Below, in pieces: positions 1 to 16,841 of a DNA stretch of 16,841 bases. How positions within the stretch are numbered: the stretch's first letter is position 1; every line of letters starts with the position of its first letter. Origin of the DNA: Candidatus Bathyarchaeota archaeon. Lineage in GTDB: Archaea > Asgardarchaeota > Lokiarchaeia > Sigyniarchaeales > Sigyniarchaeaceae. The notes under the pieces were generated by a model. It did not search any database, was not told where the DNA came from, and saw only the letters and a program-made list of their open reading frames with translations. The position numbers and the translations under genes are program-made. The stretch lies in assembly GCA_014729935.1 (NCBI GenBank), contig WJJB01000384.1:1-16841 (forward strand), in the 5' to 3' direction.

Positions 1-32
1 CTGTTGATTACGGGAAGAGAGAGTGAAGAAAC

Positions 33-455
33 ATGGCAGAAATCAAGGATAACTTGTTGTACACGAAAACTCATCAATGGTACGATCCAGAATCGGGAAA
101 GGTAGGCATCACGGATCACGCGCAGGATCAATTGGGCGAGATCGTTTATGTTGAATTGCTGTGGGATGATGGCTTGGCTGGTACTGAAGTTAGTGCAGTT
201 ACCTACGATGGAGACGAACCCGCCAGCGATCCAATCGATGATATCTCGGTTGAAAGTCAGAAAGCGGTAGGTGATATTTATGCACCACTATCTGGCGAGA
301 TCACGTCCGTGAACGAGGATCTCATGGATGAGCCAGAAAAAGTGAATGAAGACCCTTATGGCGAGGGTTGGTTATTTACATTGGATCCATCTGATTTTGA
401 CGGTGAGAAAGGAAACTTGCTTGATGCAGCTGCCTACAAGGCATTTTGCGAGTAA
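33..455 (+). CDS. gcvH: Glycine cleavage system H protein (lipoyl carrier), with an extra acidic insertion before the lipoyl-lysine
   Basis: ATG at 33. Characteristic GcvH motifs are present: YTKTHQW, GITDHAQ, lipoyl-lysine context VESQKAVGD, C-terminal NEDPYGEGWLF and AAAYKAF. At 140 aa it is about 15 aa longer than typical. Confidence 0.9.
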   Translation: MAEIKDNLLYTKTHQWYDPESGKVGITDHAQDQLGEIVYVELLWDDGLAGTEVSAVTYDGDEPASDPIDDISVESQKAVGDIYAPLSGEITSVNEDLMDEPEKVNEDPYGEGWLFTLDPSDFDGEKGNLLDAAAYKAFCE

Positions 456-466
456 CCCTGATTCAT

Positions 467-496
467 GGAGCATTGCTCCCTCTCCTTTATTTTTTG
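467..496 (+). terminator. Hairpin GGAGC-ATT-GCTCC followed by a TTTATTTTTT run just downstream of the gcvH stop. Likely an oligo-T transcription terminator.
   Basis: Read directly from the sequence: stem at 467-471/475-479, T-run at 487-496. Confidence 0.4.
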
Positions 497-676
497 TCCA
501 CTCACCCGGTCTAGGTAAACTCCACTCTTCCTCTTTAATCTACTGAAAAACACCCACGAATCGTATGTCCGGGTTGTTTCCCTGTTCCATGGCATGAGTT
601 ACTTTTAGGCTGGCTATAATGATCGAAACGGGAGTGAATCTTTATTTACACTAAACTAATATTGAGTATAGGAATT

Positions 677-698
677 ATCCAACTGTACCAAGTTGGAT
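677..698. promoter_or_regulatory. Perfect inverted repeat ATCCAACT-gtacca-AGTTGGAT (8-bp arms, 6-nt spacer) upstream of the hypothetical gene. Candidate operator for a dimeric DNA-binding protein.
   Basis: Read directly from the sequence. It lies in the 270-nt intergenic region between gcvH and the next + strand gene. Confidence 0.3.
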
Positions 699-755
699 GA
701 CAGTATTTCTTGTGGGGCATGAGCATTGCACGTGGTAGAAATAGGTCTGTTGTAC

Positions 756-1250
756 ATGGAAAAACCTCTCGTTCGCTTGGGATTCTACCGCAGGAACGAG
801 TTACTCGACGATACCACGTCCAAGCGAATTTTCATAGCTTTATATGGGCTGTTTAGGGAGATTTTTGACGATACATTGCAGGAGCTTGATTTTGATGATT
901 ACCGGGTCTTGTTCTACGTCTTTCCCATCAAGGGGGCTCCTGCCAAGGATACCAACAAGATAGATGATGAACGCATACTGGTCTATTGCGTGCTCGATCT
1001 TGAAGGGAGGAAATCTAACAATGTATTTCGCGATACCATGAAATTGAAGATGGTTAAACTTAGTGAACTTTTCAGGAAACGATATTCTCAAGATGAATTC
1101 ATGGTTCTCGTGAAGACCCATAATTTCAAACCATTCATGAGTGACCTGATGGCAGTGTTCAAGGACCTCACGATACCTTCTACAGACAGGTTTGGTACCA
1201 TTTTCGGGAATCCGCCATACCACGAAGGCAATGGGAAAGGTTCAGAATAG
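756..1250 (+). CDS. Hypothetical protein (alpha/beta, about 164 aa), no confident family assignment.
   Basis: Long ORF in the track, which starts it at TTG 726. The first ATG, at 756 (MEKPLVRL...), is preferred. No recognisable catalytic motif. The predicted alternation of strands and helices could fit a roadblock/longin-like fold, but that is speculative. Confidence 0.5.
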   Translation: MEKPLVRLGFYRRNELLDDTTSKRIFIALYGLFREIFDDTLQELDFDDYRVLFYVFPIKGAPAKDTNKIDDERILVYCVLDLEGRKSNNVFRDTMKLKMVKLSELFRKRYSQDEFMVLVKTHNFKPFMSDLMAVFKDLTIPSTDRFGTIFGNPPYHEGNGKGSE

Positions 1251-1288
1251 AACATTCTTGATCCCCCCTGATGGTTTCTAGGACCATG

Positions 1289-1855
1289 TTACACCGGGAA
1301 GTATCCTTTCTCATGAAAGTAAAAGAAAAAGGCGTTGATCACGAGAGAATGCGTGATTATGCCATCATGAATATGCTTGAATGCCTGCCTTGGTGAAACG
1401 GTGCACGAGGATACGCGTTCGTTTGGCCCGTCGAATTCAGGTTCACCTAGTTTCTTGGCATTATCAATCAAGAACGTGTAACAGGAATGGCGGTGGATGG
1501 CTGGATTCGGGTTCACCTTCCCGATGAGCTTGGTTGATTCTCCCTTGTATCCCGTCTCCTCGTGAAGTTCCCTTTCAGCTGCAACCGAAGGTTCCTCACC
1601 TGATTCTATGATACCACCGGGTATTTCAAGCTCCACCTTGTTGGAACCAAAGCGGAACTGTCGAATGAGAACTACTTCCCCGGTTGTAGTTTCCGCTATG
1701 ATATTCACCCAATCATTGCTTCTGATGAGAAAAGTCTCGATCTCCCTTCCATCGTGTGGATTCTCAAAGATAACCTCATCAACCGAGAAAATTTTGAAAG
1801 ATCCCCTTTCCGTGGTGCCCTTTTTCTTCCAATCCCTGATCTCCATGCTATGCAT
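1289..1855 (-). CDS. Nudix hydrolase, ADP-ribose/NDP-sugar pyrophosphatase-like
   Basis: Canonical Nudix box GGIIESGEEPSVAAERELHEETGY (G-x5-E-x7-REUxEExGU). Start placed at the internal ATG (MHSMEIRDW), so it does not overlap the upstream mutase gene. It is the last gene of the minus-strand sugar-phosphate operon. Confidence 0.85.
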   Translation of the reverse strand: MHSMEIRDWKKKGTTERGSFKIFSVDEVIFENPHDGREIETFLIRSNDWVNIIAETTTGEVVLIRQFRFGSNKVELEIPGGIIESGEEPSVAAERELHEETGYKGESTKLIGKVNPNPAIHRHSCYTFLIDNAKKLGEPEFDGPNERVSSCTVSPRQAFKHIHDGIITHSLVINAFFFYFHEKGYFPV

Positions 1856-1860
1856 TCCCT

Positions 1861-3261
1861 TCAGATTGAATTCATGGCTTCCTTCACGAGCTTGATACCC
1901 CATTTCGCGAGGGCTATTGCACCTTTCATTGACTTGCTATCGGCAAAACTCCTGAATTTTGGTTCTGTTCCGGACGGTCGTATCAGGACGGAGCCCCCGT
2001 CCTTGAAAATCTTCACGCCATCTATAAGCGTTCGTCGTTCCTCGCTGGTAACTTTCTTGATGCGAGCCAAGATATCATCCTTTAAATAATTCTCCACCTT
2101 TATGGTTTCCTTGTGAAGGTGATACTTGGGAAGCTCTGCAAAAAGCTCGGACAATGGAACATTTCGCTTCACGAGAATCTTGATGATGAGTGCCAAGGCG
2201 ACGCCCCCATCACGGACGGGTTGGAATGGCGTGTAAAATATGCCGCCGTTCTCTTCCCCCGCTATCATGGCATCCAGTTCCTGCATGCGACGGGAAACGG
2301 TGATGCTACCCACCTTGGTCCATTCCAGTTTGGCACCCCTGGCGTTCACGATCTCATCCACGAGCATGGATGAGCTCACGGGGGTAACGACCCATCCCTT
2401 ATACGTTTCCAAGAGATGATTCAAGATAACTGCAAAACTCTCGTCTCCCCAATGGAACACTCCCTTGTCATCAATGAATATTGCCCTATCGCCATCTCCA
2501 TCGAACCCGATCCCGAACGATGCTCGTTCCTTGACGATTGCATCCTTCAACTGTTCCAACGATCTTGGCGTGGGTTCCGACACGCGATTGGGAAACGTGC
2601 CATCCGGTTCATCAAAGATCGATGTCACCCTCACGCCTATATCATCCAAGAGCTCCTTGAAGTAGGAACACGCGATTCCATTCCCTGGATCTACCACCAC
2701 GTGGATATCCCTGGCTCCATGGCCATCGATGGGAATGACTTCGCCGATACGTTTCCTGTAATACTTCACGATATCGGGATTGTGCTCGAGTAATCCCATA
2801 CCATTCCATTCGGGTAAACTGAACCCAGGTACCTCGTTATTGAAAATGCTCTCGATTTCACGTTCCTTGGAGGCGGGGAGCTCGATGCCGTCCCTATCTA
2901 TCACCTTGATCCCGTTGAATTCAGGGGGATTGTGGGACGCAGTGATCATGAGGCCCATGTCGAATCTTGCGGTATCCTTGATGTATTTTTGCAATGCAGG
3001 AGTCGGGGTGAAACCAGCATCTTCCACATTAACTCCAGATCCGAGGAGTCCCGCAACGAGGCCAGATTTCACCATGGCCCCGGAAACACGATAATCGGTA
3101 CCGACAAGTACCTTGCCACCTCCAAGGTAAGTTCCCATGGATTGGCCGATGCGCGTGCAAGTGGCTGGAGTGAGATCGACATTGGCGATCCCGCGTATTC
3201 CATTCGTGGTGAATTTCAATGATCTTGATTCTTGTGCTACCAAAACATGTTCACCTTTCAT
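1861..3261 (-). CDS. Phosphomannomutase/phosphoglucomutase (alpha-D-phosphohexomutase family; archaeal ManB/GlmM-like)
   Basis: Active-site serine loop TASHNPPEFNGIK, metal-binding loop GFDGDGDR, sugar-binding GEENGG, N-terminal TNGIRG. The track starts it at GTG 3288. The ATG at 3261 (MKGEHV...) lies 5 nt from the upstream gene's stop, which suggests translational coupling. Confidence 0.9.
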   Translation of the reverse strand: MKGEHVLVAQESRSLKFTTNGIRGIANVDLTPATCTRIGQSMGTYLGGGKVLVGTDYRVSGAMVKSGLVAGLLGSGVNVEDAGFTPTPALQKYIKDTARFDMGLMITASHNPPEFNGIKVIDRDGIELPASKEREIESIFNNEVPGFSLPEWNGMGLLEHNPDIVKYYRKRIGEVIPIDGHGARDIHVVVDPGNGIACSYFKELLDDIGVRVTSIFDEPDGTFPNRVSEPTPRSLEQLKDAIVKERASFGIGFDGDGDRAIFIDDKGVFHWGDESFAVILNHLLETYKGWVVTPVSSSMLVDEIVNARGAKLEWTKVGSITVSRRMQELDAMIAGEENGGIFYTPFQPVRDGGVALALIIKILVKRNVPLSELFAELPKYHLHKETIKVENYLKDDILARIKKVTSEERRTLIDGVKIFKDGGSVLIRPSGTEPKFRSFADSKSMKGAIALAKWGIKLVKEAMNSI

Positions 3262-4420
3262 CCTGTTGTTGTATGATGCGTTCGACACGTGCCTTGATTT
3301 CCTCCTGCACGTGTACCTTGTTTTTTAATTCTTCCTTGAGACCTTGAATGTAAGTTACTGGCGTGGGATCCTTTCCATTCAAAAATGCAAGGTAAATGCT
3401 CATGAAATCACCCATGTACACCAAGGAGAGCATGCGGGCGAGTCGAGAAGTCCCGCGTGCTACCAAATTAATGCATGCTGCTGCCTTTTCTTCCAGAATA
3501 CCCTTCGTGTATCTCACCCGAACACCCATGGAACCAGCCTCTTGCTTTTCATCCCGCAACAAGATGCAAGAGACGTGCATAGATACATCAGGAGCTACTT
3601 CCCATCCCACAGTCTCGTTATGATTTAGCTCTGGAAAAAAATCGTGATATGCAGGATTCTTCCCATTTTCGTTTATCTGGCCCTTCAAGCGCCGCGCAAC
3701 ACTGACCAGGCAACCATGGCCATATATTGCAATGATGGTCTTGAACACCTTCAATGCGGCTTGCTTCATGGGATTTTCGTTCACCGTGGATTCTCTACCG
3801 CATTCCGAGGCTAAAGTGTGAAGGATCGCTGATGTTTCTTCGAGCTCGGTAATGATCTTTTCCTCGGGCACGATACCCGTGCCAGCCATCAGGATGGCAA
3901 GGGCGGTGAATAAATACAGCAGGGCCGCACGGGGTTGATAGCCACTTGGCAGGTGAATGCATAATCCATTCACCCTTTCAAGGAAGGAGGCCAATAACCC
4001 CCCGGAGGTGATGCCAATGCAAGTAACTTCACGCTCGATCGCATCGGCGAAACAGCTTAATGTTTCCTCCGTGTTACCAGAATAGGATAGAAAAATACCC
4101 AAGTAATGGTTGGTAATGTAAACCGGTAATGAATAACCTCGAACGACAATAATGGGTATATCCATGGCATCTTGCAACCAATCGCGCAATAAATCTCCAG
4201 AAATTGCAGACCCACCCATGCCAACGACGAAAATACCCTTCAGTTTTCCTCTCGAGATATAATTTGATACCTTCTCGATGATTCGCGTTTTTTGAACACG
4301 GGCCATGGATTCAATGCACCAGTCCATGAATCCGGGAGATTTTTCCACGATACCAAGCATGTCTCCTGAATCGAGCTCCTTCAACCTCTTGCGATCATCA
4401 AGAATGCTGGTGAGCGTCAT
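3251..4420 (-). CDS. Bifunctional phosphoglucose/phosphomannose isomerase (SIS-domain, archaeal PGI/PMI family)
   Basis: SIS-domain signature GIFVVGMGGSAISGDLL and an SYSGNTEET-type loop. Length of about 390 aa and the overall pattern match the crenarchaeal/Thermoplasma-type bifunctional PGI/PMI. It sits immediately upstream of the phosphohexomutase. Confidence 0.75.
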   Translation of the reverse strand: MTLTSILDDRKRLKELDSGDMLGIVEKSPGFMDWCIESMARVQKTRIIEKVSNYISRGKLKGIFVVGMGGSAISGDLLRDWLQDAMDIPIIVVRGYSLPVYITNHYLGIFLSYSGNTEETLSCFADAIEREVTCIGITSGGLLASFLERVNGLCIHLPSGYQPRAALLYLFTALAILMAGTGIVPEEKIITELEETSAILHTLASECGRESTVNENPMKQAALKVFKTIIAIYGHGCLVSVARRLKGQINENGKNPAYHDFFPELNHNETVGWEVAPDVSMHVSCILLRDEKQEAGSMGVRVRYTKGILEEKAAACINLVARGTSRLARMLSLVYMGDFMSIYLAFLNGKDPTPVTYIQGLKEELKNKVHVQEEIKARVERIIQQQDER

Positions 4421-4443
4421 CAGGCAAGGAGAAAGCCGGGCAC

Positions 4444-4453
4444 GATATATTGA
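4444..4453 (-). promoter_or_regulatory. TATA-like box (minus-sense CAATATAT) centred about 28 nt upstream of the PGI/PMI ATG. There is no SD, which suggests a leaderless or short-leader transcript.
   Basis: AT-rich octamer at the expected archaeal TATA distance. Confidence 0.35.
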
Positions 4454-4468
4454 TTTCCCCCTAGTTGA

Positions 4469-5011
4469 TTACATGTAATACACAGTGGAGCTCCTGTCAA
4501 ATCCCTTGACCAGTTCAATGGAGCGAGTATCTGGGGTGAATTGGTATTCAACTGGCGCATACCGGTGCCTCGGGAAGAAATACCCGATGCCATGCTTTGC
4601 CATCAACGTTACCGGGTGATCCTCAGGGAATACTTTCCTCGATACTTCCCGCGTGATTTTCCTGCAAGTCCCCTCATCAAGGAACCCGAGAGCGTGGATG
4701 TACTCGTGTTGCAATACATGGTAAACGTATGCTTCCACGATTTCCTCTCGATCCAATTGACGGGCATTTTTGTTCCATCGTGATGCGGTTTCCCCCGTCG
4801 CCAATAATACCTGTAATGCACGCCGGTTCATGAGAATCATGGTTCCTCCCGAGAAGAACATCCCCCCGATGAAACCTCGTGAAGAAATACCCATATCCAC
4901 CAATCCCAAGCTCAATCCTGCACGCTGCCTTCCAAGGACGTGCTTGACATCCCGCTTCACCTGTTCGAATATATCAGGCATTGCCTGTTTCAATTTTCTC
5001 AAGTCCATCAT
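4469..5011 (-). CDS. Small zinc metallopeptidase-like protein with an HExxHxxGxxD motif (metzincin-like minimal protease). Family uncertain.
   Basis: HEYIHALGFLDE motif, with a possible Met-turn (VTLMAKHG) downstream. The track starts it at TTG 5029. The ATG pair at 5011/5008 (MMDLRKL) is preferred, and a TATA-like AGTTATATAC sits about 25 nt upstream. Confidence 0.55.
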   Translation of the reverse strand: MMDLRKLKQAMPDIFEQVKRDVKHVLGRQRAGLSLGLVDMGISSRGFIGGMFFSGGTMILMNRRALQVLLATGETASRWNKNARQLDREEIVEAYVYHVLQHEYIHALGFLDEGTCRKITREVSRKVFPEDHPVTLMAKHGIGYFFPRHRYAPVEYQFTPDTRSIELVKGFDRSSTVYYM

Positions 5012-5153
5012 GATGTTCGACGGTTCCAAGTATATAACTTCCCCCGTTATGTGATATCGCCACGAAATATCCCGCGGGCATGATACAAGTGCAATCTTCT
5101 TTAACCAAGAATTTAATAACTAGCTATCAACAGGACTCGAAGGTGGAAGCAAC

Positions 5154-5744
5154 ATGGTGAATGATACTTCCGTGGTAGAGATAGACAAGGCGCTTGGCGA
5201 AATTGACAAGCTTGAAGATGAAATGGTTGGCGTGCGCGAATCGCTTAAAAAACTCGATCGCCTCACGGGGATCCTCTCCGATGTTCGACGGATCCTGCAC
5301 GGTAGCAAGGATGCGATTAATCAACTAGATTTCGAACGCCGCGTGCTCGAGGAGGAGAAGAAAAAGAAGGATGAGGAGATCTCACAGCTCACGGGTGAAC
5401 AGCGAAAGATATTGGAGGAATATGACCAGATTGAATCACAGCTGAAAAAATTCCAATCTTTAGTGAGCAAATTCGAGGAAAAGGAATTTAAGTTTGAAGA
5501 CGTGAAGGCCATGCTCAGCATCTTCACGATTTTGCTCGAGGAGATATTTCAAGGACAACCCCATGCCAGGATACTTTTTACATTGCACGGTGGTGCCAGT
5601 TCCATGACACGGGACCAGCTCAAGAATGCAACCGGTATCAGTGGCGCCATGGTATTGCGGGCGGTGCATGAGCTTGATCGGGCGGACCTCGTGAAATATG
5701 ATTCAGATACCAGCGAGGTGACGCTAGTCCGCCGAATCTATTAG
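5154..5744 (+). CDS. Coiled-coil protein with a C-terminal winged helix-turn-helix. Putative DNA-binding regulator or adaptor.
   Basis: The N-terminal two-thirds is a heptad-like, charged coiled coil (EEEKKKKDEE, LEEYDQIESQLKKF). The C-terminus (ILFTLHGGASSMTRDQLKNATGISGAMVLRAVHELDRADLVKY) resembles a MarR/ArsR-like wHTH. An SD (AGGTGGA) lies 9 nt upstream of the ATG. Confidence 0.7.
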   Translation: MVNDTSVVEIDKALGEIDKLEDEMVGVRESLKKLDRLTGILSDVRRILHGSKDAINQLDFERRVLEEEKKKKDEEISQLTGEQRKILEEYDQIESQLKKFQSLVSKFEEKEFKFEDVKAMLSIFTILLEEIFQGQPHARILFTLHGGASSMTRDQLKNATGISGAMVLRAVHELDRADLVKYDSDTSEVTLVRRIY

Positions 5745-5854
5745 GATGCCACATGGTATCATTCAATGCAATTCCCGGTCCAAAATTTTTTAAACTACTA
5801 ACAAGATCTTCATGAGAGGAACATTCTTGAAATGTGCCTTAGGAGATAATCGAT

Positions 5855-6091
5855 ATGCAAGGTATTTCAGCAAGAGATTTCGAGGTTCTTTGCAAGAAGC
5901 ATAATGGATTGTGCCTGTTTTTCCAAGCAAGCACCCTCATCGCCTTCGTGCTATCCGTGATCATCATCGTGTACAATTATTTTATCAAATTGGATATGCC
6001 AATGCACGGCTTGGCATATTTACTCCTTGGCATCATCGTGACGTCATTAGTAGTCGTGATCCTGCAGAAACTCAAGTTCAAGCGTGATTAA
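5855..6091 (+). CDS. Small membrane protein with two predicted TM helices (78 aa)
   Basis: Two hydrophobic stretches (LIAFVLSVIIIVYNYFI and LAYLLLGIIVTSLVVVIL). An SD (TAGGAGA) lies about 9 nt upstream. Confidence 0.5.
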   Translation: MQGISARDFEVLCKKHNGLCLFFQASTLIAFVLSVIIIVYNYFIKLDMPMHGLAYLLLGIIVTSLVVVILQKLKFKRD

Positions 6092-6274
6092 CCTGGTGAA
6101 ACGGGTTCATTCGGCACCTACCAGCCCTTTCCTTTTTCTAATCATTTCTATAGTTTCAAGCGATTAGTTTTTATTCTAGGCAACTAAAACTCTATTTAAT
6201 ACCCTTCCCCTGCGTCCCTTGGTATCCCCGGATTGTGGTGGTAGGGTGAAAATTGCACCGTTGAGGTAATATTC

Positions 6275-6613
6275 ATGGCTAAAGACAAGACTATTGGAGC
6301 AATCATCTTGGTAGGTGCTGCCGCACTACTCGTCTTTTACACGTTCTGGTTGATCGGTGGATTCATCCAAGATAATATAGTTCCTGGGAATATCTGGGAT
6401 AAGCTAAGCTGGTTCCCCCACATACCCGGACTTCCGTGGGAGCTTGCAGTGATCATTCCGTTGTGGCTGGTGGCAGCACTCGTCCTCGCGATCGCTATCT
6501 GGATCGGTTGGAGCATGTTGACAACCCCACCACCTGTGCCACTGGAGGAGCTAGAAGAGCAGCTTGAGGCAGAGGAAGCCGAGGCAGCAGCAGCCGAGGG
6601 CGACTCAGAATAA
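6275..6613 (+). CDS. Membrane protein with two TM helices and an acidic Glu/Ala-rich C-terminal tail (112 aa)
   Basis: Hydrophobic segments GAIILVGAAALLVFYTFWLIGGF and LAVIIPLWLVAALVLAIAIWIGW. Tail PVPLEELEEQLEAEEAEAAAAEGDSE. SD GAGGT 8 nt upstream. Confidence 0.6.
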   Translation: MAKDKTIGAIILVGAAALLVFYTFWLIGGFIQDNIVPGNIWDKLSWFPHIPGLPWELAVIIPLWLVAALVLAIAIWIGWSMLTTPPPVPLEELEEQLEAEEAEAAAAEGDSE

Positions 6614-6660
6614 GCATGCACTTGCATGCCTTCCATTTTTCACCGTTTTTATTTTTTCTC
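6614..6660. terminator. Bidirectional terminator between convergent genes: hairpin GCATGC-ACTT-GCATGC followed by T-runs (TTCCATTTTTCACCGTTTTTATTTTTT).
   Basis: Read directly from the sequence. Located between the 6275 (+) and 6710 (-) genes. Confidence 0.45.
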
Positions 6661-6709
6661 CTTAACGTGCGTGCCTGATTGCAAATCTCCATGGATGGGT
6701 GGAATGATT

Positions 6710-7870
6710 TCACTTTTTCACCTGAACTTTCTTGGCTACTTCTTCATCAATGTCCTCGATGGATATCTTGAGTGAATCGTCCAAGTCCATCCCGAGGCTA
6801 TCCAACTCTATCTTGGCGTCTTGGACCATGTCATCTGCCTCGATGTTACTACCGGTGTTCACGCCAAGATTGGCGATTTCTTCCATTTCCTTGTTGATAT
6901 TTTCTTCCATTCGGCGGATTTCAGCCATTTCCTCATCGAAAGTTTTCATGGGCGGAGGATTGTTACTTGCCGGGGTGCTCATCCCCGTTTCCTGGCTTTT
7001 TCCAGAAGTTGCTTGAGTTGCTTCCGTGGATTCACCCGTGTTGATTTCATCTTCTGTGAAGTCGGAGAGAAAATCGGACTCGTGGAACATGTAATCCTCG
7101 TCGTTCAACACGTCCATGTCATGACCCGTTATTGCTTCTTCCTCCGGCGGGGATTCTATCTCCGGGGAAATCCCCTTGGTGTTGCCAAGCGCCCCCGATC
7201 CAGGTACCGTTGGACCGCGCTTCTCGAGATTCGTGACGCGTACCATTTCCTCCTTGAATGCCTTGTACCTTGCAGGGATGATTTCGTCAATATTGCTATC
7301 GCCGTTTTCAGCAATTATTTCCCTGTATTCCTCCAGCTCATCACCGGTGTACACGTGTCCGTTCCCCATGTTGTAGAACAAGGGAATGATGCGGGCATCC
7401 GGGATCACCTTCTTGATGATCTCTAGTTCCCTTACCTGATCGAGCAAATGGGTAACCTCATTTGTGAAGAATCCGAACAAGTCCATGGCGCTCTTTAGGG
7501 AAGAGAAATACTTCGAGATTGTTCCCGATGATGCGAATATTTGTTTTAACTTGGAAAGATTGCGTCTCAGGGTGTCCACATCCGAAAGCATGCTGTTGGA
7601 ATGTCCCAGGATGACAATTTCCTTCACTTTCCCATGCAGGAGCAAGGCGTAGATCGACCTTATCACATCATTACTCACGGTGGGCCCTGCATTCCGAATC
7701 ACGCATGCTTCTCCTGGCTCCAACTTGAAGATATCGAACGGATTGATCCGTGGGTCTATCGACGTGATGATGACCACGACTTCCTCCCTTTTTTTATCTA
7801 CCACTCCCGTGTCCTGTCCCAGAGTCTCCTTCTGGTGAACCGAAACCATGTTGTTTAATATCAAGTCCAT
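6710..7870 (-). CDS. Beta-class carbonic-anhydrase-like domain protein. Both zinc-ligand cysteines are replaced, so it is probably a pseudoenzyme. It is fused to a long acidic, disordered/coiled-coil C-terminal region.
   Basis: The N-terminal roughly 200 aa align by eye to Cab-type beta-CA. IITSIDPR corresponds to the CxDxR loop, with Cys replaced by Ser/Thr. VIRNAGP is present. ILGHSNS corresponds to HxxC, with Cys replaced by Ser. The C-terminal roughly 170 aa are D/E-rich (e.g. DEDYMFHESDFLSDFTEDEINTGESTE, EEMAEIRRMEENINKEMEEI). Confidence 0.7.
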   Translation of the reverse strand: MDLILNNMVSVHQKETLGQDTGVVDKKREEVVVIITSIDPRINPFDIFKLEPGEACVIRNAGPTVSNDVIRSIYALLLHGKVKEIVILGHSNSMLSDVDTLRRNLSKLKQIFASSGTISKYFSSLKSAMDLFGFFTNEVTHLLDQVRELEIIKKVIPDARIIPLFYNMGNGHVYTGDELEEYREIIAENGDSNIDEIIPARYKAFKEEMVRVTNLEKRGPTVPGSGALGNTKGISPEIESPPEEEAITGHDMDVLNDEDYMFHESDFLSDFTEDEINTGESTEATQATSGKSQETGMSTPASNNPPPMKTFDEEMAEIRRMEENINKEMEEIANLGVNTGSNIEADDMVQDAKIELDSLGMDLDDSLKISIEDIDEEVAKKVQVKK

Positions 7871-8089
7871 GTAATTACGCCCCGTGTACTACAACCAATC
7901 CTGCTATTAAATGATTATAGCTCTACCCAACAAGAGATCGTGGCTTTCTGGCGGAAACCGGATATACCGCGATATTTGCATTAACACATGTATTCCCTTT
8001 ATATTCTATTGCTCTCTTACCAGACACGAGCAGGCTTGATCCTTCAAGTTTGCAGGTACATGCAAGTAACGTGAAGAAGAGGAAACATC

Positions 8090-9337
8090 ATGAACATGCA
8101 ATTCGGCGGGGGTTTCAACCTGACCATGTTTCTCGTGCTAGCGGGAGTCATCGTGGGTATCGCCGTGATCATATATATCATCGTGTGGTTCAACACCCTG
8201 GTTGTGGTGCCGTTTAATGAGGTGCACGTTGTATCGAAAACAAAGAAAGTAAACCAGTATGACGGATCTGGGAGGTATCGTTATTTCAAGGTATTGCACG
8301 GTCGAACCATCATTCCCAAACACGTGCTGGATATCGAGCCACCACTCATTAAACTGCATGATATTGACAAGCTCCCCTTCGGTGTGGAAATTTCTGTTAA
8401 AGTGCAGGTCACTGACCCGAGAAAAGCTGCCGAGACTTTGACAGCCATTAACCACCAAACCATCAGCAAAGTGGTGGAAGATACCGTCATGAGTGCTGCC
8501 AGGTCCGTTGCAATGGAGCGGAACATCCTGGATATCATGAAGGAGCGTGAGGAAATTGAATCCGCCATTTACGGGATGGTATCGGACGCGTTGAACAAGT
8601 TGGGGCTTTCTCCCATCATCTTCGACATCAAGAACATCCGGGACATCGATGGGATGGACGTGATTGCAAGCCTTGAGCGGGTGAAGATCGCGGAATTGAA
8701 GAAAAACGCTCGGGTATCCGAGGCGATTCATAATAGCGCGGCGATTACCATAGAGGTTGAGAAAAGGAAGGAAAACACGGTTAAAGACGAGCAAATGAAG
8801 CAGGAAGAGGAAAATGCGCGTCTTGAACGTGAAAAAAGCATTGCTGATCAGATGATTCAAGTGGAAAAGCGGAAGCTCGCAATTGCTCGCCAGAAGGCTC
8901 ATGAAATGGCTGAAATCGAACTGGAAAAGCAGCAAATGGCGGCACGCGCCCTGCGGGATAAGAAAATGATCTTGGCACAGGCAGAAGCAGATGCAATCAA
9001 GCTCAAGGCGGAAGCGGACGCGGAGGGCATCAAACTCAGGGGTGAGGCAGAAGCTGCTACCATCAAGCACAAGGCTGAAGCCATGAATGAGTATAACAAC
9101 GTGAGTGCGGCAGGTGCGAAGATCAAGATGGCTGAAATTCTCAGCGCCGCACAAGTTGAAATGGCGGAAAAGCTGGCTACCGCCCTTGGATCAAATAACA
9201 AGATCATGTATCTTCCCATGGATGGCAAGAGCAGTTTCATAGGAAATTTCCTGCCAAAATTGGACATGCTACTTCAATCCGATGTGGTGCAAAGAATGCT
9301 AAGCAAGCTGAGCGGGAAAGGGGACAGTCCCGAGTAA
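8090..9337 (+). CDS. Flotillin-like SPFH/band-7 protein (FloT/YqiK type)
   Basis: N-terminal TM helix, SPFH domain, then a long coiled coil with characteristic EA repeats (AEADAIKLKAEADAEGIKLRGEAEAATIKHKAEA). SD GAGG 8 nt upstream of the ATG. A TATA-like CTTTATATTC lies at about 7997-8006. Confidence 0.9.
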   Translation: MNMQFGGGFNLTMFLVLAGVIVGIAVIIYIIVWFNTLVVVPFNEVHVVSKTKKVNQYDGSGRYRYFKVLHGRTIIPKHVLDIEPPLIKLHDIDKLPFGVEISVKVQVTDPRKAAETLTAINHQTISKVVEDTVMSAARSVAMERNILDIMKEREEIESAIYGMVSDALNKLGLSPIIFDIKNIRDIDGMDVIASLERVKIAELKKNARVSEAIHNSAAITIEVEKRKENTVKDEQMKQEEENARLEREKSIADQMIQVEKRKLAIARQKAHEMAEIELEKQQMAARALRDKKMILAQAEADAIKLKAEADAEGIKLRGEAEAATIKHKAEAMNEYNNVSAAGAKIKMAEILSAAQVEMAEKLATALGSNNKIMYLPMDGKSSFIGNFLPKLDMLLQSDVVQRMLSKLSGKGDSPE

Positions 9338-9343
9338 CACCCG

Positions 9344-9356
9344 TTCATTTTTTTTT
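9344..9356 (+). terminator. T9 run immediately after the flotillin stop. Terminator, and/or a TATA-like element for the next gene.
   Basis: TTCATTTTTTTTT, seen directly. Confidence 0.3.
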
Positions 9357-9380
9357 ACCCCATCCTTGTGTGATCCAATA

Positions 9381-10028
9381 ATGGTGAAAGTTCCAACTGG
9401 GGCACGGGTAACCGTGGACTTGTGGAGTAAAAATAAGGGAAAGGGTATGGTGAAATATCATGCGGATACCATGTTTCTTGTCCGGGGTGAAAGTGATTTT
9501 CCCCTCGAGAAAGGGGTTCCCGCCATAGTGGTGGAATCCCACGAGAATTTTGTCAGGATCATCCCGCTTGATGACTACACCCGTATTCTTGGCAAGAACC
9601 TGACCGGCATCAATATTGAAGCATTATCCAAGGTAATCTACGAGTATCTTAAGAAACATATCGACCATACAGGGGGAATGGTGTCGGTTGATGACATGCT
9701 CGTGATGTTGAAGAAAACTTCCATCGCCATGGAAATCAAGCGAAAGCACCTGTTGAAAGCGGCGGGTGCAGGCAAGTACCAGGTCCAGCTCTACGAGCAT
9801 GGTGGCATCATGTTTCTCGCGCTATCGGAACAAGAATGCACCACGGACCAAGCAACCATCTTGGAGCTGGCGAAGGGTAGGGATTATCTTGGCATGGTGG
9901 AGATTCGAGCGGTTACGGGATGGAAAGATGCACGTATTGTCAGGGTGATGGACTTTCTCGTGGAGCGAAATGCCTGTCGCAAGTCCAGCACGTACAAGGA
10001 CGGCATGCGTTTTTACTTCACCCCGTGA
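9381..10028 (+). CDS. Small beta-barrel (KOW/SH3-like or NfeD-OB-like) N-terminal domain fused to two tandem winged-helix domains. Function unknown.
   Basis: The N-terminal region carries a KOW-like motif: GARVTVDLWSKNKGKGMV, then FLVRGES...GVPAIVVESHENFVRIIP. After that come two helix/helix/beta-hairpin repeats (ALSKVIYEYLKK...YQVQLY and QATILELAKG...IVRVMDFLVERNA...MRFYF). The track starts at TTG 9366. The ATG at 9381 is preferred. Confidence 0.65.
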   Translation: MVKVPTGARVTVDLWSKNKGKGMVKYHADTMFLVRGESDFPLEKGVPAIVVESHENFVRIIPLDDYTRILGKNLTGINIEALSKVIYEYLKKHIDHTGGMVSVDDMLVMLKKTSIAMEIKRKHLLKAAGAGKYQVQLYEHGGIMFLALSEQECTTDQATILELAKGRDYLGMVEIRAVTGWKDARIVRVMDFLVERNACRKSSTYKDGMRFYFTP

Positions 10029-10147
10029 TATCATGCACCTTGATCGATATGGAATCTCGGAGCATGCCTCATGCCCCATGCATAAATATCCGAGAATGTA
10101 TTTGGATAGTGATATCATCTCCTTAATGAGAGAGGAGGAGTATAATC

Positions 10148-11911
10148 ATGGGGAAATTCACGAAAAAGATGAAAATAGCATCCATCACAGTGGCCGTAGT
10201 GGCCCTAACAACATTTTCGTTCCTGCTTTTCTTGCAACCATGGAAATCCACGAGGAATGGTAATGATACGCCGCCATTGGTGGGAACCCCATCTACGGGA
10301 ATTCCAGTTGCTGGAAGCCCAATTCGCGTGAACGTGACCGTCACGGATGATATTGGGGTGCAACAAGTTCTCCTTGGATACACGACAGACCTGAACATGT
10401 GGCAGAATGTTACCATGTCCGGTGCCGGCACGGAGACATGGATTGGCTACGGGCACATACCCGCACAGGATATCGAAAAAGAGATCCATTACGTGATTCA
10501 CGGGATCGATTCCAGTGGGCATGTAACGACTAATGACAACTCGTCTTCGTACTACAAGTTACATACCGGTTCGCGCAAGGCGATGATATTATGCTCCGCG
10601 AATGATTTTCACGGGGAGGAGCCTGAAGGAGCATTCAATGGCAGTCCTGATGGAACTTTCGATTCATGGACGGGAAACTGGGAGGTGGAAAATGGCGGGT
10701 CATCCTTCGTGATGGCACCTGGGCCACCTGAAGTCTCCTTCGAAAAGGCCGTGCCTGGCCCCGACCAGAATGCCATTTCATTCAACTGGACGGGGAATGG
10801 CTATGATTTAGTTGAATATGCCGAATATCAAATTTCCGTGATGGCAAGAATCGATACCGTAGTCGATGGACCTGGTGCGAGGGTTGGTATTCGGTGGTTG
10901 AACGAATCGGGATCCACAATCAGGATGGATTGGTCTGGAAATCTCAACGACACGGTTGGGACATGGGAGTCCCTGCAGGCAACTGGCCCGTGTAATAATG
11001 AATCAAGTGGAATAATTACGGGAATGGAAGTGCTCCTTGATGTTCAAGGAAATAATGCTGTTACCGTGTTTTTTGATAATGTGACCGTGAACAAGCTCAT
11101 CACGGTGAACGTGAGCAACCCTTTAGATCCTGGGAATTCCCCCCCGCCACCATATATTGATTCAGATGGATTCCCCGCGCAAGCATTGCACGTGTACTGG
11201 ATCTTGAAGAATCATGGCTACAGTGATGATAATATCTTCTTGATGCTCTATCACACCAATGATCCCGTGATTGATATACAAGCAGGTGATGGGATTCCCA
11301 ATGATCTCGTTGGCGCGAATATTGACGTCGAGAATGATGACGTGAACGCCAGCAGATTCATCGAGGAACTAAACGTGTCGCACGCCGGATCTTTTGCATC
11401 ATCCATCAAGGAAAATGATCAGCTCATCGTGTATCTCGTGGATCACGGTTCGAATGCCATCCTTGGGGATGGAAATGTCACGTTCCATTTCGAGGCAGAC
11501 GGGAGTTACGTGAGCGAGATGGAATTTCATGATTTGGTGAATAATATCTCTTGCAACCGCATGATGATAAACGTGGATTGCTGCTTCAGCGGCAATTTCT
11601 TGCAAGTGAATGCCAGTGCAGGCGGTTGGCTTGATATCGACAATTGCATCATGGTCACCTCGTCATTGAACGTGTTCTCGTGGTACTGGGTAGATAATTC
11701 GAACGGGGACATGTTCGCTGGCTCCTGGTTCTTCCACGTGTTCTGGGAGATTCTTGACATTGGACTATCGATAGCAGATGCATTCACTCAATCGGAAAAC
11801 TTCGTGCCTTTCGGGAAGCCAATGCCCTTATTCGTGTCACAATGTCCATTATATCACGATCCCGGTAACATTGGATCGACCTGGAATTTCACCAGCGTGC
11901 CAAGATTATAA
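10148..11911 (+). CDS. Secreted or membrane-anchored cysteine peptidase of the C13 family (legumain/GPI8-like) with a large N-terminal domain. Heavily decorated with N-glycosylation sequons.
   Basis: N-terminal signal/anchor segment (KIASITVAVVALTTFSFLLFL). Catalytic-His context LIVYLVDHGSNAILG and catalytic-Cys context NVDCCFSGNF match the legumain His-Gly-spacer-Cys arrangement. I count 17 N-x-S/T sequons. Strong SD GAGGAGGAG upstream. Confidence 0.75.
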   Translation: MGKFTKKMKIASITVAVVALTTFSFLLFLQPWKSTRNGNDTPPLVGTPSTGIPVAGSPIRVNVTVTDDIGVQQVLLGYTTDLNMWQNVTMSGAGTETWIGYGHIPAQDIEKEIHYVIHGIDSSGHVTTNDNSSSYYKLHTGSRKAMILCSANDFHGEEPEGAFNGSPDGTFDSWTGNWEVENGGSSFVMAPGPPEVSFEKAVPGPDQNAISFNWTGNGYDLVEYAEYQISVMARIDTVVDGPGARVGIRWLNESGSTIRMDWSGNLNDTVGTWESLQATGPCNNESSGIITGMEVLLDVQGNNAVTVFFDNVTVNKLITVNVSNPLDPGNSPPPPYIDSDGFPAQALHVYWILKNHGYSDDNIFLMLYHTNDPVIDIQAGDGIPNDLVGANIDVENDDVNASRFIEELNVSHAGSFASSIKENDQLIVYLVDHGSNAILGDGNVTFHFEADGSYVSEMEFHDLVNNISCNRMMINVDCCFSGNFLQVNASAGGWLDIDNCIMVTSSLNVFSWYWVDNSNGDMFAGSWFFHVFWEILDIGLSIADAFTQSENFVPFGKPMPLFVSQCPLYHDPGNIGSTWNFTSVPRL

Positions 11912-11947
11912 CACGGTTGCTGGTGTCTTACTTTTTCCCATTCATTT

Positions 11948-12982
11948 TCATGATGCACGTGCATGGTTCACGCCCATGACAGTTGACTTTCTTGCAGAGG
12001 TGTAAATTGACTCGATCAGCTCGAGAGCCCTGGTGCCATCTGTTCCGGTGATGGCTGGTGCACGCCCTTCCTTAATGGCATTCGAGAAGTCCTGTAGCAG
12101 GCGCCCGTGGGAAAGGATCTTCAACTCCTTTGAAGAAATTCCACGTTCACCTGCGAAATCCCTTCTATCGATATTTCCATCACCCTTGAAAAAAATCAAG
12201 GAATCCTTGCGAATTTCAATGGCACCCCTAGTTCCATGGATGGTTAGGCTTGTTCCCATGGGCGTCTTCACCGAAATGGAAGCTTGGATGGTCCCGAACG
12301 CGCCGTTCGTGAACTTGAATGCAGCCACGGCATTATCCTCGGTTTCGATATCATGCATGAGATGCGATTGGAATCCAGCCACCAAATCCACATCTCCGAT
12401 GAGATGTAATGCCAAGTCGATGTCGTGAATGGCTTGGTTGATGAGCGCACTGCCCCCTTCCATGTTGAGCCTTCCACGCCACTTGCTTTCAGTGAAATAT
12501 CCCCCATCCCGTTTCAAGTAGACCTCTATCTTGGCAAGCAGTAACTTTCCCAGCTTTCCCGAGTCTATCATCTGTTTCGCCAAGAGGGTTGAATCATTGA
12601 ACCGGTTTTGGTGATATACTCCAAGAACGAGATTTCGCCTGCTTGCCTCTTGGATCATCTCCCGTGCATCATTCGTGCTCGTGGCAATGGGTTTTTCAAC
12701 CAGCACGTGCTTGCCGTGTTCGAGTGCATCCAGGGCCACGGGGTGATGCAACCTGTGGGGCAAGGAGATGATGATACCCTCCACGTCCTTCATCACGCAA
12801 AGATCGAGATGGGAATCCACCGTGGTAGGAATGCTGAATTCCCTCGCGAGATTTCTTGCTTTTACGATATCATGGTTTGATATTGCAATGATATCGAGAT
12901 TAGCAGCTTTTTCCACTCCACGTGCAATGTTCCTTGCAGACCATCCCGCGCCAGCAATGGCGAGCCGTGCTCTTGAATCCAA
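11948..12982 (-). CDS. Gfo/Idh/MocA family NAD(P)-dependent oxidoreductase (paralogue 1)
   Basis: N-terminal Rossmann IAGAGWSARN, the family EKP motif (HVLVEKPIA), and a C-terminal alpha/beta domain. TTG start supported by an SD (AGGTGA) 7 nt upstream. The only in-frame ATG further upstream is cut off from this ORF by a TGA stop. Confidence 0.85.
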   Translation of the reverse strand: MDSRARLAIAGAGWSARNIARGVEKAANLDIIAISNHDIVKARNLAREFSIPTTVDSHLDLCVMKDVEGIIISLPHRLHHPVALDALEHGKHVLVEKPIATSTNDAREMIQEASRRNLVLGVYHQNRFNDSTLLAKQMIDSGKLGKLLLAKIEVYLKRDGGYFTESKWRGRLNMEGGSALINQAIHDIDLALHLIGDVDLVAGFQSHLMHDIETEDNAVAAFKFTNGAFGTIQASISVKTPMGTSLTIHGTRGAIEIRKDSLIFFKGDGNIDRRDFAGERGISSKELKILSHGRLLQDFSNAIKEGRAPAITGTDGTRALELIESIYTSARKSTVMGVNHARAS

Positions 12983-13029
12983 GTGCTTTCACCTATTCCT
13001 GTCCATGTCGCTTGTGACATTAACCTAAT

Positions 13030-14076
13030 CTAAAGGGTGATGATCTTTTCACCATTTGATTCATACACGGCTCGAACGACCTTCAAGGATTCCAATGCCG
13101 CCTCACCATTCACGACCGGTTCCCTATCCTCGATAATGGCATTGCAGAAATCCATCATCATCCTGCCGTGTGCTAATAGCGAGAATTTACTCGGATCTTT
13201 TGCAGAACCGACTTGACCACCGTGCTTCGCGGCATAATCAATCACTTTTTCCTTTCCATCAGCATCGTGTATGGTAAGTATATTTCCATCTATTTGAATG
13301 GCACCCTCGGAACCAAAGATCGTGAGTTTTGCGGGAAATGCTGCTTTGGTCGCCGTGCTCGTTTGTAGGGTGCCAAAGGCCCCGTTTTCGAATTGGAATG
13401 CCGCCGCGGTGAGGTCGTCCACCTCGATGTCATGTATGGCATGATCCCACAAGCCGAAGAGTGTCTTCACGCTACCAACTAAGTGCACCATTTCATCCAC
13501 GGGATGGATGGCTTGGTTTATCAGGCTACCACCGCCTTCCAATACCCATGTGCCACGCCACCCGCTTTTCTGGTAATAATCGTCGTCCCGGTACCACATG
13601 ACGCTCACGTTGGCTTGAAGAATTTTGCCCAATTTGCCCCCATCTATCAGCTTCTTTGCTTCTTGGACGGCATCGAAGAACCTGCATTGGAAATGCACGC
13701 CGAGCTTTAAATTCTTCTTCCTTGCGGTATCTATCATTTCCTCGGCGTCTTCTATTTTCGTGGCAATTGGCTTTTCAACAAGCACGTGCTTTCCATGTTT
13801 CAAGGCATACATGGTTATTTCGTGGTGCAATCCGTGGGGCACGCTGATGATGACGAAATCCACCGATTCATCATCGCACACGTCCTTGTAATCATCACTC
13901 ACGATTTTCGAGTCATGACCTGCAGCTATCTTCTTGGCGGCATCGATATTCTTATCCGCGATTGCCACCAAGCTTAAATTTTCGATGGTCGCAATGGTTG
14001 CGGCGATGTTCGTCGCGGAGCTTCCCGCGCCAATCATGCCCGCTTTCAAGTTCCTTGCTAACTTTCGTGATTCCAT
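13030..14076 (-). CDS. Gfo/Idh/MocA family NAD(P)-dependent oxidoreductase (paralogue 2)
   Basis: GMIGAGSSATNIA Rossmann motif, HVLVEKPIA, and the same architecture as the downstream paralogue. ATG start with a strong SD (GAGGTGA) 7 nt upstream. Confidence 0.85.
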   Translation of the reverse strand: MESRKLARNLKAGMIGAGSSATNIAATIATIENLSLVAIADKNIDAAKKIAAGHDSKIVSDDYKDVCDDESVDFVIISVPHGLHHEITMYALKHGKHVLVEKPIATKIEDAEEMIDTARKKNLKLGVHFQCRFFDAVQEAKKLIDGGKLGKILQANVSVMWYRDDDYYQKSGWRGTWVLEGGGSLINQAIHPVDEMVHLVGSVKTLFGLWDHAIHDIEVDDLTAAAFQFENGAFGTLQTSTATKAAFPAKLTIFGSEGAIQIDGNILTIHDADGKEKVIDYAAKHGGQVGSAKDPSKFSLLAHGRMMMDFCNAIIEDREPVVNGEAALESLKVVRAVYESNGEKIITL

Positions 14077-14113
14077 GAATCGTTCACCTCACGACATTGA
14101 TCGCACCCTTGCC

Positions 14114-14124
14114 AATAAAATTTT
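14114..14124 (+). promoter_or_regulatory. TATA-like AATAAAATTTT about 30 nt upstream of the EF-2-like gene ATG. No SD, so probably leaderless.
   Basis: AT-rich element at the canonical distance. Lies in the divergent region shared with the Gfo paralogue 2 promoter. Confidence 0.35.
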
Positions 14125-14148
14125 CAAACATGGTGTCCTTACATTCCC

Positions 14149-16362: not shown

Positions 16363-16449
16363 TGAAATTTGGGGGATTTTCTTCGACTGGTGCCTCTCCA
16401 CCTTCTTTCTTTTTTCCATCATTCCCCATTCGATTTAAATCCATCGACA

Positions 16450-16460
16450 GATTATATGTT
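16450..16460 (+). promoter_or_regulatory. TATA-like box GATTATATGTT 27-37 nt upstream of the tRNA 5' end
   Basis: Seen directly. Sits at the appropriate distance for an archaeal tRNA promoter. Confidence 0.4.
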
Positions 16461-16486
16461 AACGCAAGGAAAGCCAATACTAATTT

Positions 16487-16597
16487 GCGCCTATTGTCTA
16501 GTGGTTAGGATACCAGCTTCCCAAGGTGTAGCGGTATATATCCCTTTTGGGACACCGGAAATAGCTGGTCGCCCGGGTTCAATTCCCGGTAGGCGCA
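16487..16597 (+). tRNA. tRNA-Gly(CCC): tRNA-Gly(CCC) with a 39-nt intron at the canonical 37/38 position
   Basis: Hand-folded cloverleaf. Acceptor GCGCCUA/UAGGCGC (7 bp, discriminator A). D-arm GUCU/AGUGGUUA/GGAU. Anticodon stem CCAGC/GCUGG with loop UU-CCC-A. T-arm CCGGG-UUCAAUU-CCCGG. The exons total 72 nt, and no CCA is encoded. Confidence 0.8.
16524..16562 (+). other. tRNA intron (archaeal splicing-endonuclease type)
   Basis: A 39-nt insertion between anticodon-loop positions 37 and 38. It has internal pairing GGUGU/ACACC and a CCC-UUUU-GGG hairpin, consistent with an archaeal bulge-helix-bulge substrate. Confidence 0.65.
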
Positions 16598-16653
16598 TTC
16601 TTCATTTTCACCTTCCTTGCTATTCCTATGCCAAAGAGTGATTCTGTTCACGT

Positions 16654-16841
16654 CTATAAAGTGCATTCTGCTATTTCATTTACAATTCGAGGCTCGCGAT
16701 CGCCATCTTCACCCAAGGCTGTGGGCCGCTGGAGCGGACGCATGCGAGGGTCTTGGTGGCATTTTCCGGTGCCTCTATTGATGTTACCACCTGCGGGAAA
16801 ATCGTTGATGGCATCCCGCGCCTGCTTCATCGTGCTCGTGA
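16654..16841 (-). CDS. Possible 3' end of a minus-strand gene running off the window edge (C-terminus ...GEDGDREPRIVNEIAECTL*)
   Basis: Open minus-strand frame from the window edge to a TAG (plus-strand CTA at 16654-16656). Local GC is higher than in the flanking intergenic DNA. No homology recognised, and a plus-strand frame is also open here. Confidence 0.2.
   Translation of the reverse strand, partial: TSTMKQARDAINDFPAGGNINRGTGKCHQDPRMRPLQRPTALGEDGDREPRIVNEIAECTL

Follow-up and report, generated by a model that had tools for sequence, protein, structure and literature searches.

Introduction

What can a protein do that has kept the fold of a beta-carbonic anhydrase (beta-CA) but not the cysteines that hold the zinc? 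Active beta-CAs carry the ligand motifs C-x-D-x-R and H-x-x-C, and their mechanism requires a Cys-His-Cys zinc centre. The question is raised by GF325_14105, a hypothetical protein encoded on the reverse strand of contig WJJB01000384.1 (assembly GCA_014729935.1). We analysed the stretch from position 1 to 16,841 of this contig, called the window below. An original prediction, made from the DNA of the window, had read the protein as a beta-CA homologue without zinc-binding cysteines, fused to a long acidic tail. We find that GF325_14105 is probably a non-catalytic pseudo-carbonic anhydrase, a scaffold or adaptor built on the beta-CA fold, as judged from sequence comparison and structural modelling.

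A beta-CA fold without its zinc ligands

The gene, its core domain and the three active-site motifs lie as follows.

6710..7870, reverse strand: coding sequence of the zinc-ligand-less beta-CA-like protein, 386 amino acids plus stop, complete; NCBI hypothetical protein GF325_14105
7343..7870, reverse strand: residues 1-176, N-terminal helix and beta-CA alpha/beta core (Pfam, PDB matches, AlphaFold2, Foldseek)
7748..7762, reverse strand: first ligand motif S-I-D-P-R, residues 37-41; Cys replaced by Ser37 (TCG, 7760-7762), Asp39 and Arg41 kept
7685..7696, reverse strand: RNAG loop, residues 59-62, intact; G62 is invariant in the Asgard long beta-CA-like family described below
7592..7603, reverse strand: second ligand motif H-S-N-S, residues 90-93; His90 kept, Cys replaced by Ser93 (AGC, 7592-7594)

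The open reading frame (ORF) is intact over its 386 codons (7870..6710). The Pfam model PF00484 (Pro_CA) matches residues 33-172 (7355-7774) with an E-value of 1.9e-9 and 38.4 bits, above its gathering score of 25.7 bits. In a phmmer search of the PDB, all significant matches were beta-CAs or their CS2/COS-hydrolase relatives; the best was Mycobacterium tuberculosis Rv1284 (1ylk, 5e-6), and the archaeal Cab enzyme (1g5c) was also matched. AlphaFold2 modelled residues 1-220, with an 86-sequence family alignment as input, at a predicted local distance difference test (pLDDT) of 93.3 and a predicted template modelling score of 0.85. A Foldseek search of the PDB with this model returned only beta-CAs as top matches, at probability 1.00 (3las at 2e-10, then 1g5c and 1ylk). 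The original prediction had placed a Cab-type beta-CA fold in the N-terminal part and proposed checking it, together with the ligand positions, by profile hidden Markov model (HMM) and structure prediction. The fold is confirmed on both counts.

Pairwise and multiple alignments agree on the ligand positions. They align 'ITSIDPR' with 'VACMDAR' and 'GHSNS' with 'HHTDC', and place S37 and S93 on the two Cys ligands. In place of the Cys-His-Cys set the protein thus has Ser37, His90 and Ser93. The Asp-Arg dyad is present, with D39 and R41 on the C-x-D-x-R motif. No alternative Cys pair is available in the protein, C56 being the single Cys among its 386 residues. The IDPR dyad, the RNAG loop (R59-N-A-G62) and the ligand His (H90) are kept as originally described. 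The two cysteines, said to have been replaced by Ser/Thr, are indeed both gone, but both replacements are Ser and neither is Thr.

As far as its sequence tells, GF325_14105 does not belong to the functional beta-CA enzymes: the defining ligand set was looked for and is absent. Having lost two of three metal ligands from a confidently predicted fold, it is a predicted pseudoenzyme. Loss of both Cys ligands with retention of Asp, Arg and His makes a non-catalytic or repurposed scaffold the most economical reading, in line with the original proposal. From these residues we infer that the protein would have no carbonic anhydrase activity.

An Asgard family of long beta-CA-like proteins

An exhaustive phmmer/HMMER scan of 1.84 billion cluster representatives gave 202 matches to GF325_14105. 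About 55 of them are proteins of 270-500 amino acids that align to its residues 30-185/210. These long relatives score from 2e-35 to 1e-10, and canonical short carbonic anhydrases (CAs; about 165 amino acids) appear only from about 1e-7. The closest relative among the representatives, P0002, has an E-value of 2e-35 and 36% identity. GF325_14105 is the most divergent member of this family, with at most 36% identity to any other.

A profile search found 874 clusters at E<=1e-20, which carry no annotation other than 'carbonic anhydrase', 'beta-class carbonic anhydrase' or 'hypothetical protein'. Every named member comes from Asgard archaea, either Sigynarchaeota or Promethearchaeota. When one genome per GTDB species was scanned with a pattern, 69 loci from Asgard metagenome-assembled genomes (MAGs) were found, with E-values from 1e-77 to 8e-52; the bacterial label of one of them is obviously misplaced. 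Below these loci the scores fall sharply, from 8e-52 for the family to 5e-25 for bacterial beta-CAs. A literature search found no paper that describes this family or links SPFH proteins and carbonic anhydrases in archaea.

Family proteins are about 300 amino acids long, some 120-150 residues beyond a canonical beta-CA. They share the CA core, two further helices, a variable low-complexity linker and a basic C-terminal peptide. The peptide consists of repeats of hydrophobic-Pro-Lys/Arg-hydrophobic-x, for example IPKINVPKINYPKIKVSIPNIYKK, and ends nearly all members. It is confined to the CA-like proteins, occurring in 65 of the 2062 ORFs scanned in all fetched loci. GF325_14105 keeps 28 of the 41 family columns that are conserved at 85% or more, and its clade relatives keep 27-32. 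A quick neighbour-joining tree, computed without support values, places it in clade A with the canonical members P0005 and P0007 and with a derived group.

The contig is labelled 'Candidatus Bathyarchaeota archaeon' at NCBI (GF325_14105, GF325_14110). The Asgard-only family and the matches of the neighbouring flotillin (see below) indicate that it probably comes from an Asgard archaeon or is mis-binned.

The family operon

The first seven members to be examined all have the CA-like gene downstream of a Band_7/SPFH gene and on its strand; the two are immediate neighbours in six, and one gene lies between them in locus L008. Across the family, a partner-type Band_7 gene is found upstream on the same strand in 70 of the 71 loci with enough upstream sequence. 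Some of the 70 have an extra membrane-protein gene or a second CA-like paralogue between the two, and 61 also have an upstream transmembrane (TM) partner gene. Neither arrangement, with Band_7 or with the TM partner, occurs at the bacterial control loci.

The one locus of the 71 without a Band_7 partner (L025:5484-6371) has unrelated genes around it and encodes a protein with the canonical CDRHC residues and the basic motif. Relocation out of the operon thus also befalls intact members.

Across the family the partner SPFH proteins share 52-80% identity; among solved structures they are most like flotillin-1 and stomatin. In the TM partner, one TM helix is followed by a long Asp-His or Asp-Val repeat, two further TM helices and a small beta-rich C-terminal domain. 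The repeat between TM1 and TM2 reaches about 150 residues and reads D-H-(V/I)-D-H or D-V-D-V (L004:2715-3614, L006:3545-4471, L016:3752-4627 and equivalents); at Sigyn-type loci it is D/E/A/G-rich. It would form a cytoplasmic loop of strongly acidic character that may bind metal, its charge the reverse of that in the basic CA-like tail. In architecture and gene position the TM partner resembles the NfeD partners of SPFH proteins (PMC2636767). Its hhalign matches to NfeD proteins are weak, with 27% probability for Escherichia coli YbbJ (colinear) and 18% for YqiJ.

Several operons hold further genes. Locus L008 (3467-5873) has two adjacent CA-like paralogues, one of them 500 amino acids long with a very long Lys/Asn-rich linker, and L055 (4005-6909) has two paralogues with one membrane-protein gene between them. 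Both operons also encode extra multi-TM proteins. In clade A (L001-L004, L009, L093) the CA-like gene is followed by genes for a KTI12/AAA_33-like kinase and a PhoU_div protein, and then, on the opposite strand, by one for an Arf/Ras-like small GTPase. This recurrent order hints that genomes of the Sigynarchaeota type share a larger conserved neighbourhood.

Erosion of the catalytic site across the family

Most of the family keeps the zinc site: about 94 of 114 non-identical sequences have the canonical C-D-R-H-C residues. Rows that lacked the first Cys were artefacts of calling ORFs from ATG starts only. About 20 family ORFs seemed to start after the Cys codon, and selenocysteine at the first ligand was considered for them; it was rejected, as translation shows Cys and no in-frame stop.

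In the clade of GF325_14105, every member of a derived subclade is altered at the catalytic site. The pattern is S-D-R-H-S in GF325_14105, S-D-R-H-T in P0003 and S-D-R-N-P in P0006. A Sigynarchaeota-type group in the same subclade has C-S-[W/Y/N]-H-C, in which the ligands are kept and the Asp/Arg dyad is lost. Ligands were also lost independently elsewhere in the family, in P0021 (S..S), L074/P0051 (D..S..S), P0038 and P0057. The ligand-less L074 (DDRSS) and P0006 (SDRNP) remain in the operon and keep the basic motif, so zinc catalysis is not strictly needed for the role linked to the operon.

In itself, ligand loss has precedents, being seen infrequently in short beta-CAs as well (3 of about 72 sampled). 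Short homologues without zinc ligands (about 170 amino acids, outside the Asgard family) include P0064 (DDRSN), P0106 (GDRVS) and P0116 (CDRKK). Ligand-less proteins with the beta-CA fold may be more widespread than annotation suggests.

The C-terminal extension

The region after the CA core divides into three parts.

7223..7342, reverse strand: residues 177-216, a pair of helices that follows the CA core and is conserved throughout the Asgard long-CA family
6941..7222, reverse strand: residues 217-310, low-complexity linker, probably disordered; 49% S/T/P/G/N/Q, 20% D+E, net charge -14
6713..6940, reverse strand: residues 311-386, acidic helical C-terminus; 30% D+E, net charge -14

The two-helix module belongs to the family. 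Its residues E178, P199, R201 and Y202 are invariant in the clade A alignment, GF325_14105 included, and the module (E178, P199-x-R201-Y202) is modelled at pLDDT > 90. Residues 177-386 together contain 25.7% D+E and 9% K+R and have a net charge of -35. Where relatives carry a Met-rich helix and the basic hydrophobic-P-K-hydrophobic repeat, GF325_14105 has residues 311-386. The last 30 residues have a charge of -4, against +3 to +11 in nearly all other members (114 sequences). Three highly conserved prolines of the motif correspond to A352, D365 and K380.

A single-sequence AlphaFold2 model of the full-length protein was poor (pLDDT 48.7), and we used it solely for the secondary-structure tendency of the tail. 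It predicts helices at 311-338, 342-367 and 371-385, with low to moderate confidence. The tail is truly coding, since in GC content by codon position it resembles the neighbouring genes and stops abound in its other frames; the same gene-like composition holds throughout the gene.

The basic hydrophobic-P-K/R-hydrophobic repeat was found neither in the protein nor in any frame of 6300-7300 on the reverse strand. A basic motif hidden by frameshift or read-through is thereby excluded, the alternative frames being stop-rich. A seeming vestige of the motif ('GMSTPASNNPPPMKT' aligned to 'VRVFTPKIRMPRIKG') is a low-complexity alignment, on which we do not rely.

The long extension was originally described as unusual for a CA, and so it is, canonical beta-CAs having about 165 residues. 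As a fusion it is no one-off, because 120-150 or so extra residues are the rule in the family. What is unique to GF325_14105 is that the extension is acidic and no longer ends in the basic motif of the family. Among the homologues, whose survey had been proposed with the original prediction, ligand losses recur, and the combination of both Cys losses, no basic peptide and an acidic tail is found in GF325_14105 only (1 of 114 family sequences).

Neighbourhood of the gene

The genes next to GF325_14105 were read as follows.

6275-6613, forward strand: small TM protein with an acidic Glu/Ala tail and 2-3 TM helices, convergent
7871..8089: divergent intergenic region, 219 nt, between GF325_14105 and the flotillin-like gene (read from sequence)
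7904-7911: candidate TATA-like element TTTAATAG, about 34-41 nt upstream of the ATG of the CA-like gene (read from sequence)
8090..9337, forward strand: flotillin-like SPFH/Band_7 gene, divergent; a paralogue other than the family's operon partner
9366..10028, forward strand: EAP30/Vps36-like (ESCRT-II-type winged helix) gene, the conserved downstream partner of the window flotillin in Asgard genomes

The gene is thus convergent to an acidic-tailed membrane protein (6275-6613) and divergent from a flotillin (8090-9337), as first noted. It stands outside the family operon. There is no family TM partner in the window, and the Band_7 neighbour is divergent and only 21-27% identical to the Band_7 partners of the family. 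This flotillin is part of a different, well-conserved group of Asgard flotillin-like proteins. Its best matches are all from Asgard archaea, with 55-68% identity to those from Hodarchaeota, Lokiarchaeota, Sigynarchaeota, Lokiarchaeum ossiferum and Promethearchaeum syntrophicum. GF325_14105 is, by its sequence, a member of the Asgard long-CA family by descent, yet without two family hallmarks, the basic motif and the operon. The original prediction had derived a possible structural or adaptor role from the neighbouring membrane-protein and flotillin genes. An SPFH-related role is plausible at the level of the family, but the adjacent flotillin is not the family's partner, and local adjacency alone is weak evidence for such a role.

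The flotillin and EAP30-like genes form a pair at four other Asgard loci: L090, L091, L092 and L096, from Hodarchaeota, a Sigyn-type contig, a Lokiarchaeota MAG and Promethearchaeum syntrophicum MK-D1. At L096 the gene divergent from the orthologous flotillin was considered as a CA-like candidate and showed no similarity. For the window EAP30-like protein, an N-terminal OB domain of the NfeD type was considered and rejected (hhalign probability 0.1%). A contextual link between SPFH proteins and ESCRT has been described in other archaea (PMC10936438). The Asgard pair may merit separate study.

Three other ORFs of the window deserve mention. The small TM protein at 6275-6613 has a sub-threshold Pfam match to DPM2, the regulatory subunit of dolichol-phosphate-mannose synthase (23.4 bits against a cut-off of 27.3). 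A few genes away, at 10148-11911 on the forward strand, a 587-residue protein combines an N-terminal TM helix with a Peptidase_C13 (legumain/GPI8-type) domain, a eukaryote-flavoured protease family. The 186-residue ORF at 4469-5029 on the reverse strand has no Pfam match and contains an HExxH motif (HEYIH); its product may be a small metallopeptidase-like protein.

Interpretation and alternatives

We propose that GF325_14105 derives from an Asgard family whose gene is third in an operon, after those for a TM protein and an SPFH/Band_7 scaffold. The TM protein, with its acidic or His-Asp repeats and C-terminal beta-domain, would be NfeD-like in architecture. The family protein consists of a dimer-forming CA core, the two conserved helices, a variable disordered linker and the basic C-terminal peptide, which most likely tethers it to the SPFH assembly, the TM partner or the membrane. 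GF325_14105 has retained the fold and the conserved helices, has lost the zinc-binding cysteines, the basic tether and its place in the operon, and carries a partly helical acidic tail (-35). By analogy with the rest of the family and with CsoSCA (see below), we infer that family members act as clients or adaptors of an SPFH assembly, and that GF325_14105 acts by protein binding. It would most probably work through protein-protein contacts and not through CO2 hydration, either as an oligomeric scaffold or adaptor or as a partner that regulates a canonical paralogue or heterodimerises with it.

Several observations weigh against this reading. The link of GF325_14105 to SPFH biology is by descent only, both the C-terminal motif and the operon context being missing. 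At the four other Asgard loci (4/4) the flotillin is followed by the EAP30-like gene and none has a CA-like neighbour. No close relative of GF325_14105 was found in a word-indexed search of 5.8 billion proteins (self-match only), in genome contigs or in metagenome contigs. Its place in clade A comes from the quick tree, which has no support values. On the side of the operon, the TM partner has no Pfam match and no PDB-profile match that would point to NfeD homology.

The gene's position admits a more specific role, that of a dedicated adaptor or structural part of the adjacent flotillin-like SPFH and EAP30-like module, with the acidic tail as the interaction element and the 219-nt intergenic region as a shared promoter. 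The two genes are directly adjacent and divergent, and an SPFH protein accompanies the family of GF325_14105 nearly everywhere. With few SPFH genes per genome, chance placement beside a second SPFH paralogue is unlikely (a rough estimate). The orthologous flotillin and EAP30-like pairs, however, lack a CA-like neighbour in all four loci, with an unrelated divergent gene in one. This leaves the adjacency as a single observation, and we regard the dedicated role as improbable. The opposite possibility is that GF325_14105 has no role to keep: a decaying paralogue that was duplicated, left the operon and lost its zinc site and targeting peptide, with a fast-evolving low-complexity tail that does nothing specific. 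That it is a singleton, with nothing above 36% identity among 15 billion proteins, would fit, as would the joint loss of ligands, C-terminal motif and operon context and a count of conserved columns (28 of 41) among the lowest in the family. Other features weigh against decay, though. The ORF is unbroken over 386 codons, its GC by codon position is gene-like from end to end, stops are frequent in the alternative frames, and the fold is predicted with high confidence. Conserved residues other than the ligands are kept, including the clade-invariant ones in the extension; the 28 conserved columns together with E178, P199, R201 and Y202 are signs that the fold is under selection. Elsewhere in the family, members without the ligands are clearly maintained within operons. 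Decay therefore seems to us an unlikely account.

It is also conceivable that GF325_14105 is still an enzyme, in which Ser37, Asp39, His90 and Ser93 bind a harder metal or act without one, in a reaction other than or additional to CO2 hydration. Replacement of Cys by Ser/Thr with Asp, Arg and His kept is seen in separate branches (GF325_14105, P0003 with S..T and P0021 with S..S) and could reflect selection, and in CS2 and COS hydrolases the beta-CA fold serves other chemistry. Cys to Ser is a one-step mutational path, however, and its recurrence is expected under relaxation as well. The neo-functionalised enzymes of this fold that we know of (3ten, 3vqj) keep the Cys-His-Cys zinc site, which counts against a ligand-less enzyme. 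The sisters of GF325_14105 have lost different residues, His in P0006 and the Asp/Arg dyad in the CSWHC group, which looks like erosion and not like a new conserved site. We consider retained catalysis very unlikely. A non-catalytic scaffold or adaptor is the reading we prefer.

Known systems and significance

Among characterised proteins, the Cab-type short beta-CAs (1G5C, Rv1284 1YLK and the Streptococcus mutans CA 3LAS) share the fold, D-x-R, RNAG and G-H with GF325_14105. They differ in that GF325_14105 has Ser for both Cys and carries the extra helical module and the tail of about 170 residues; identity in structural alignments is 19-22%. The Asgard long family is nearer, with N-terminal homology, the post-core helices, a long low-complexity C-terminal region and a common Asgard origin. 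GF325_14105 differs from it in having no basic repeat, no zinc ligands and no TM-partner/Band_7 operon, and in its acidic tail.

Animal carbonic-anhydrase-related proteins (CARPs) VIII, X and XI are likewise CA-fold proteins without zinc ligands that act through protein binding. They are eukaryotic, belong to the alpha class with an unrelated fold, and have lost His ligands. Within the beta class, the alpha-carboxysomal CsoSCA consists of a beta-CA domain, a duplicated beta-CA domain without zinc and a disordered targeting peptide (PMC10614612). Like GF325_14105 it contains a beta-CA-fold domain without zinc-binding residues, and its disordered terminal peptide recruits it into a large assembly. 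In CsoSCA, however, the dead domain shares its chain with an active one, and the peptide that targets the protein sits at the N-terminus and binds Rubisco; the relation is one of fold class only.

SPFH proteins form cage-like membrane microdomains, and to our knowledge their clients in archaea are mostly unknown. The Asgard operon resembles the SPFH-NfeD operons (PH1510/PH1511, YbbJ-QmcA, YuaF-FloT and YqiJ-YqiK; PMC2636767) in having, just upstream of the SPFH gene, a gene whose small membrane product contains three hydrophobic stretches and ends in an all-beta domain. It differs in its third gene, as a beta-CA-like gene occurs in no described SPFH operon; the window itself has no such operon.

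All this could be joined into one picture: a so far undescribed three-part membrane-scaffold system of Asgard archaea, made of an Asp/His-repeat TM protein, an SPFH cage-former and a beta-CA-fold client that is recruited through the hydrophobic-P-K-hydrophobic repeat and serves mainly as a non-catalytic oligomeric hub. Such a role, if true, would explain the repeated loss of catalytic residues. GF325_14105 would then be a rewired derivative, whose charge-inverted acidic tail redirects a dead CA core to a second Asgard flotillin system coupled to an ESCRT-II-like protein. We think it doubtful that this picture holds as a whole.

Dead CA folds are already known, and ligand loss alone is not startling; the operon context matters more. 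For annotation, GF325_14105 and several of its relatives should not bear the name carbonic anhydrase. No prokaryotes are more closely related to eukaryotes than the Asgard archaea, and their specific, undescribed operon of SPFH protein, TM partner and beta-CA-like protein with a candidate targeting peptide is arguably of more interest than the single ORF with which we began. An SPFH client that can be recognised by sequence and carries a candidate targeting peptide would make SPFH function in Asgard archaea directly testable.

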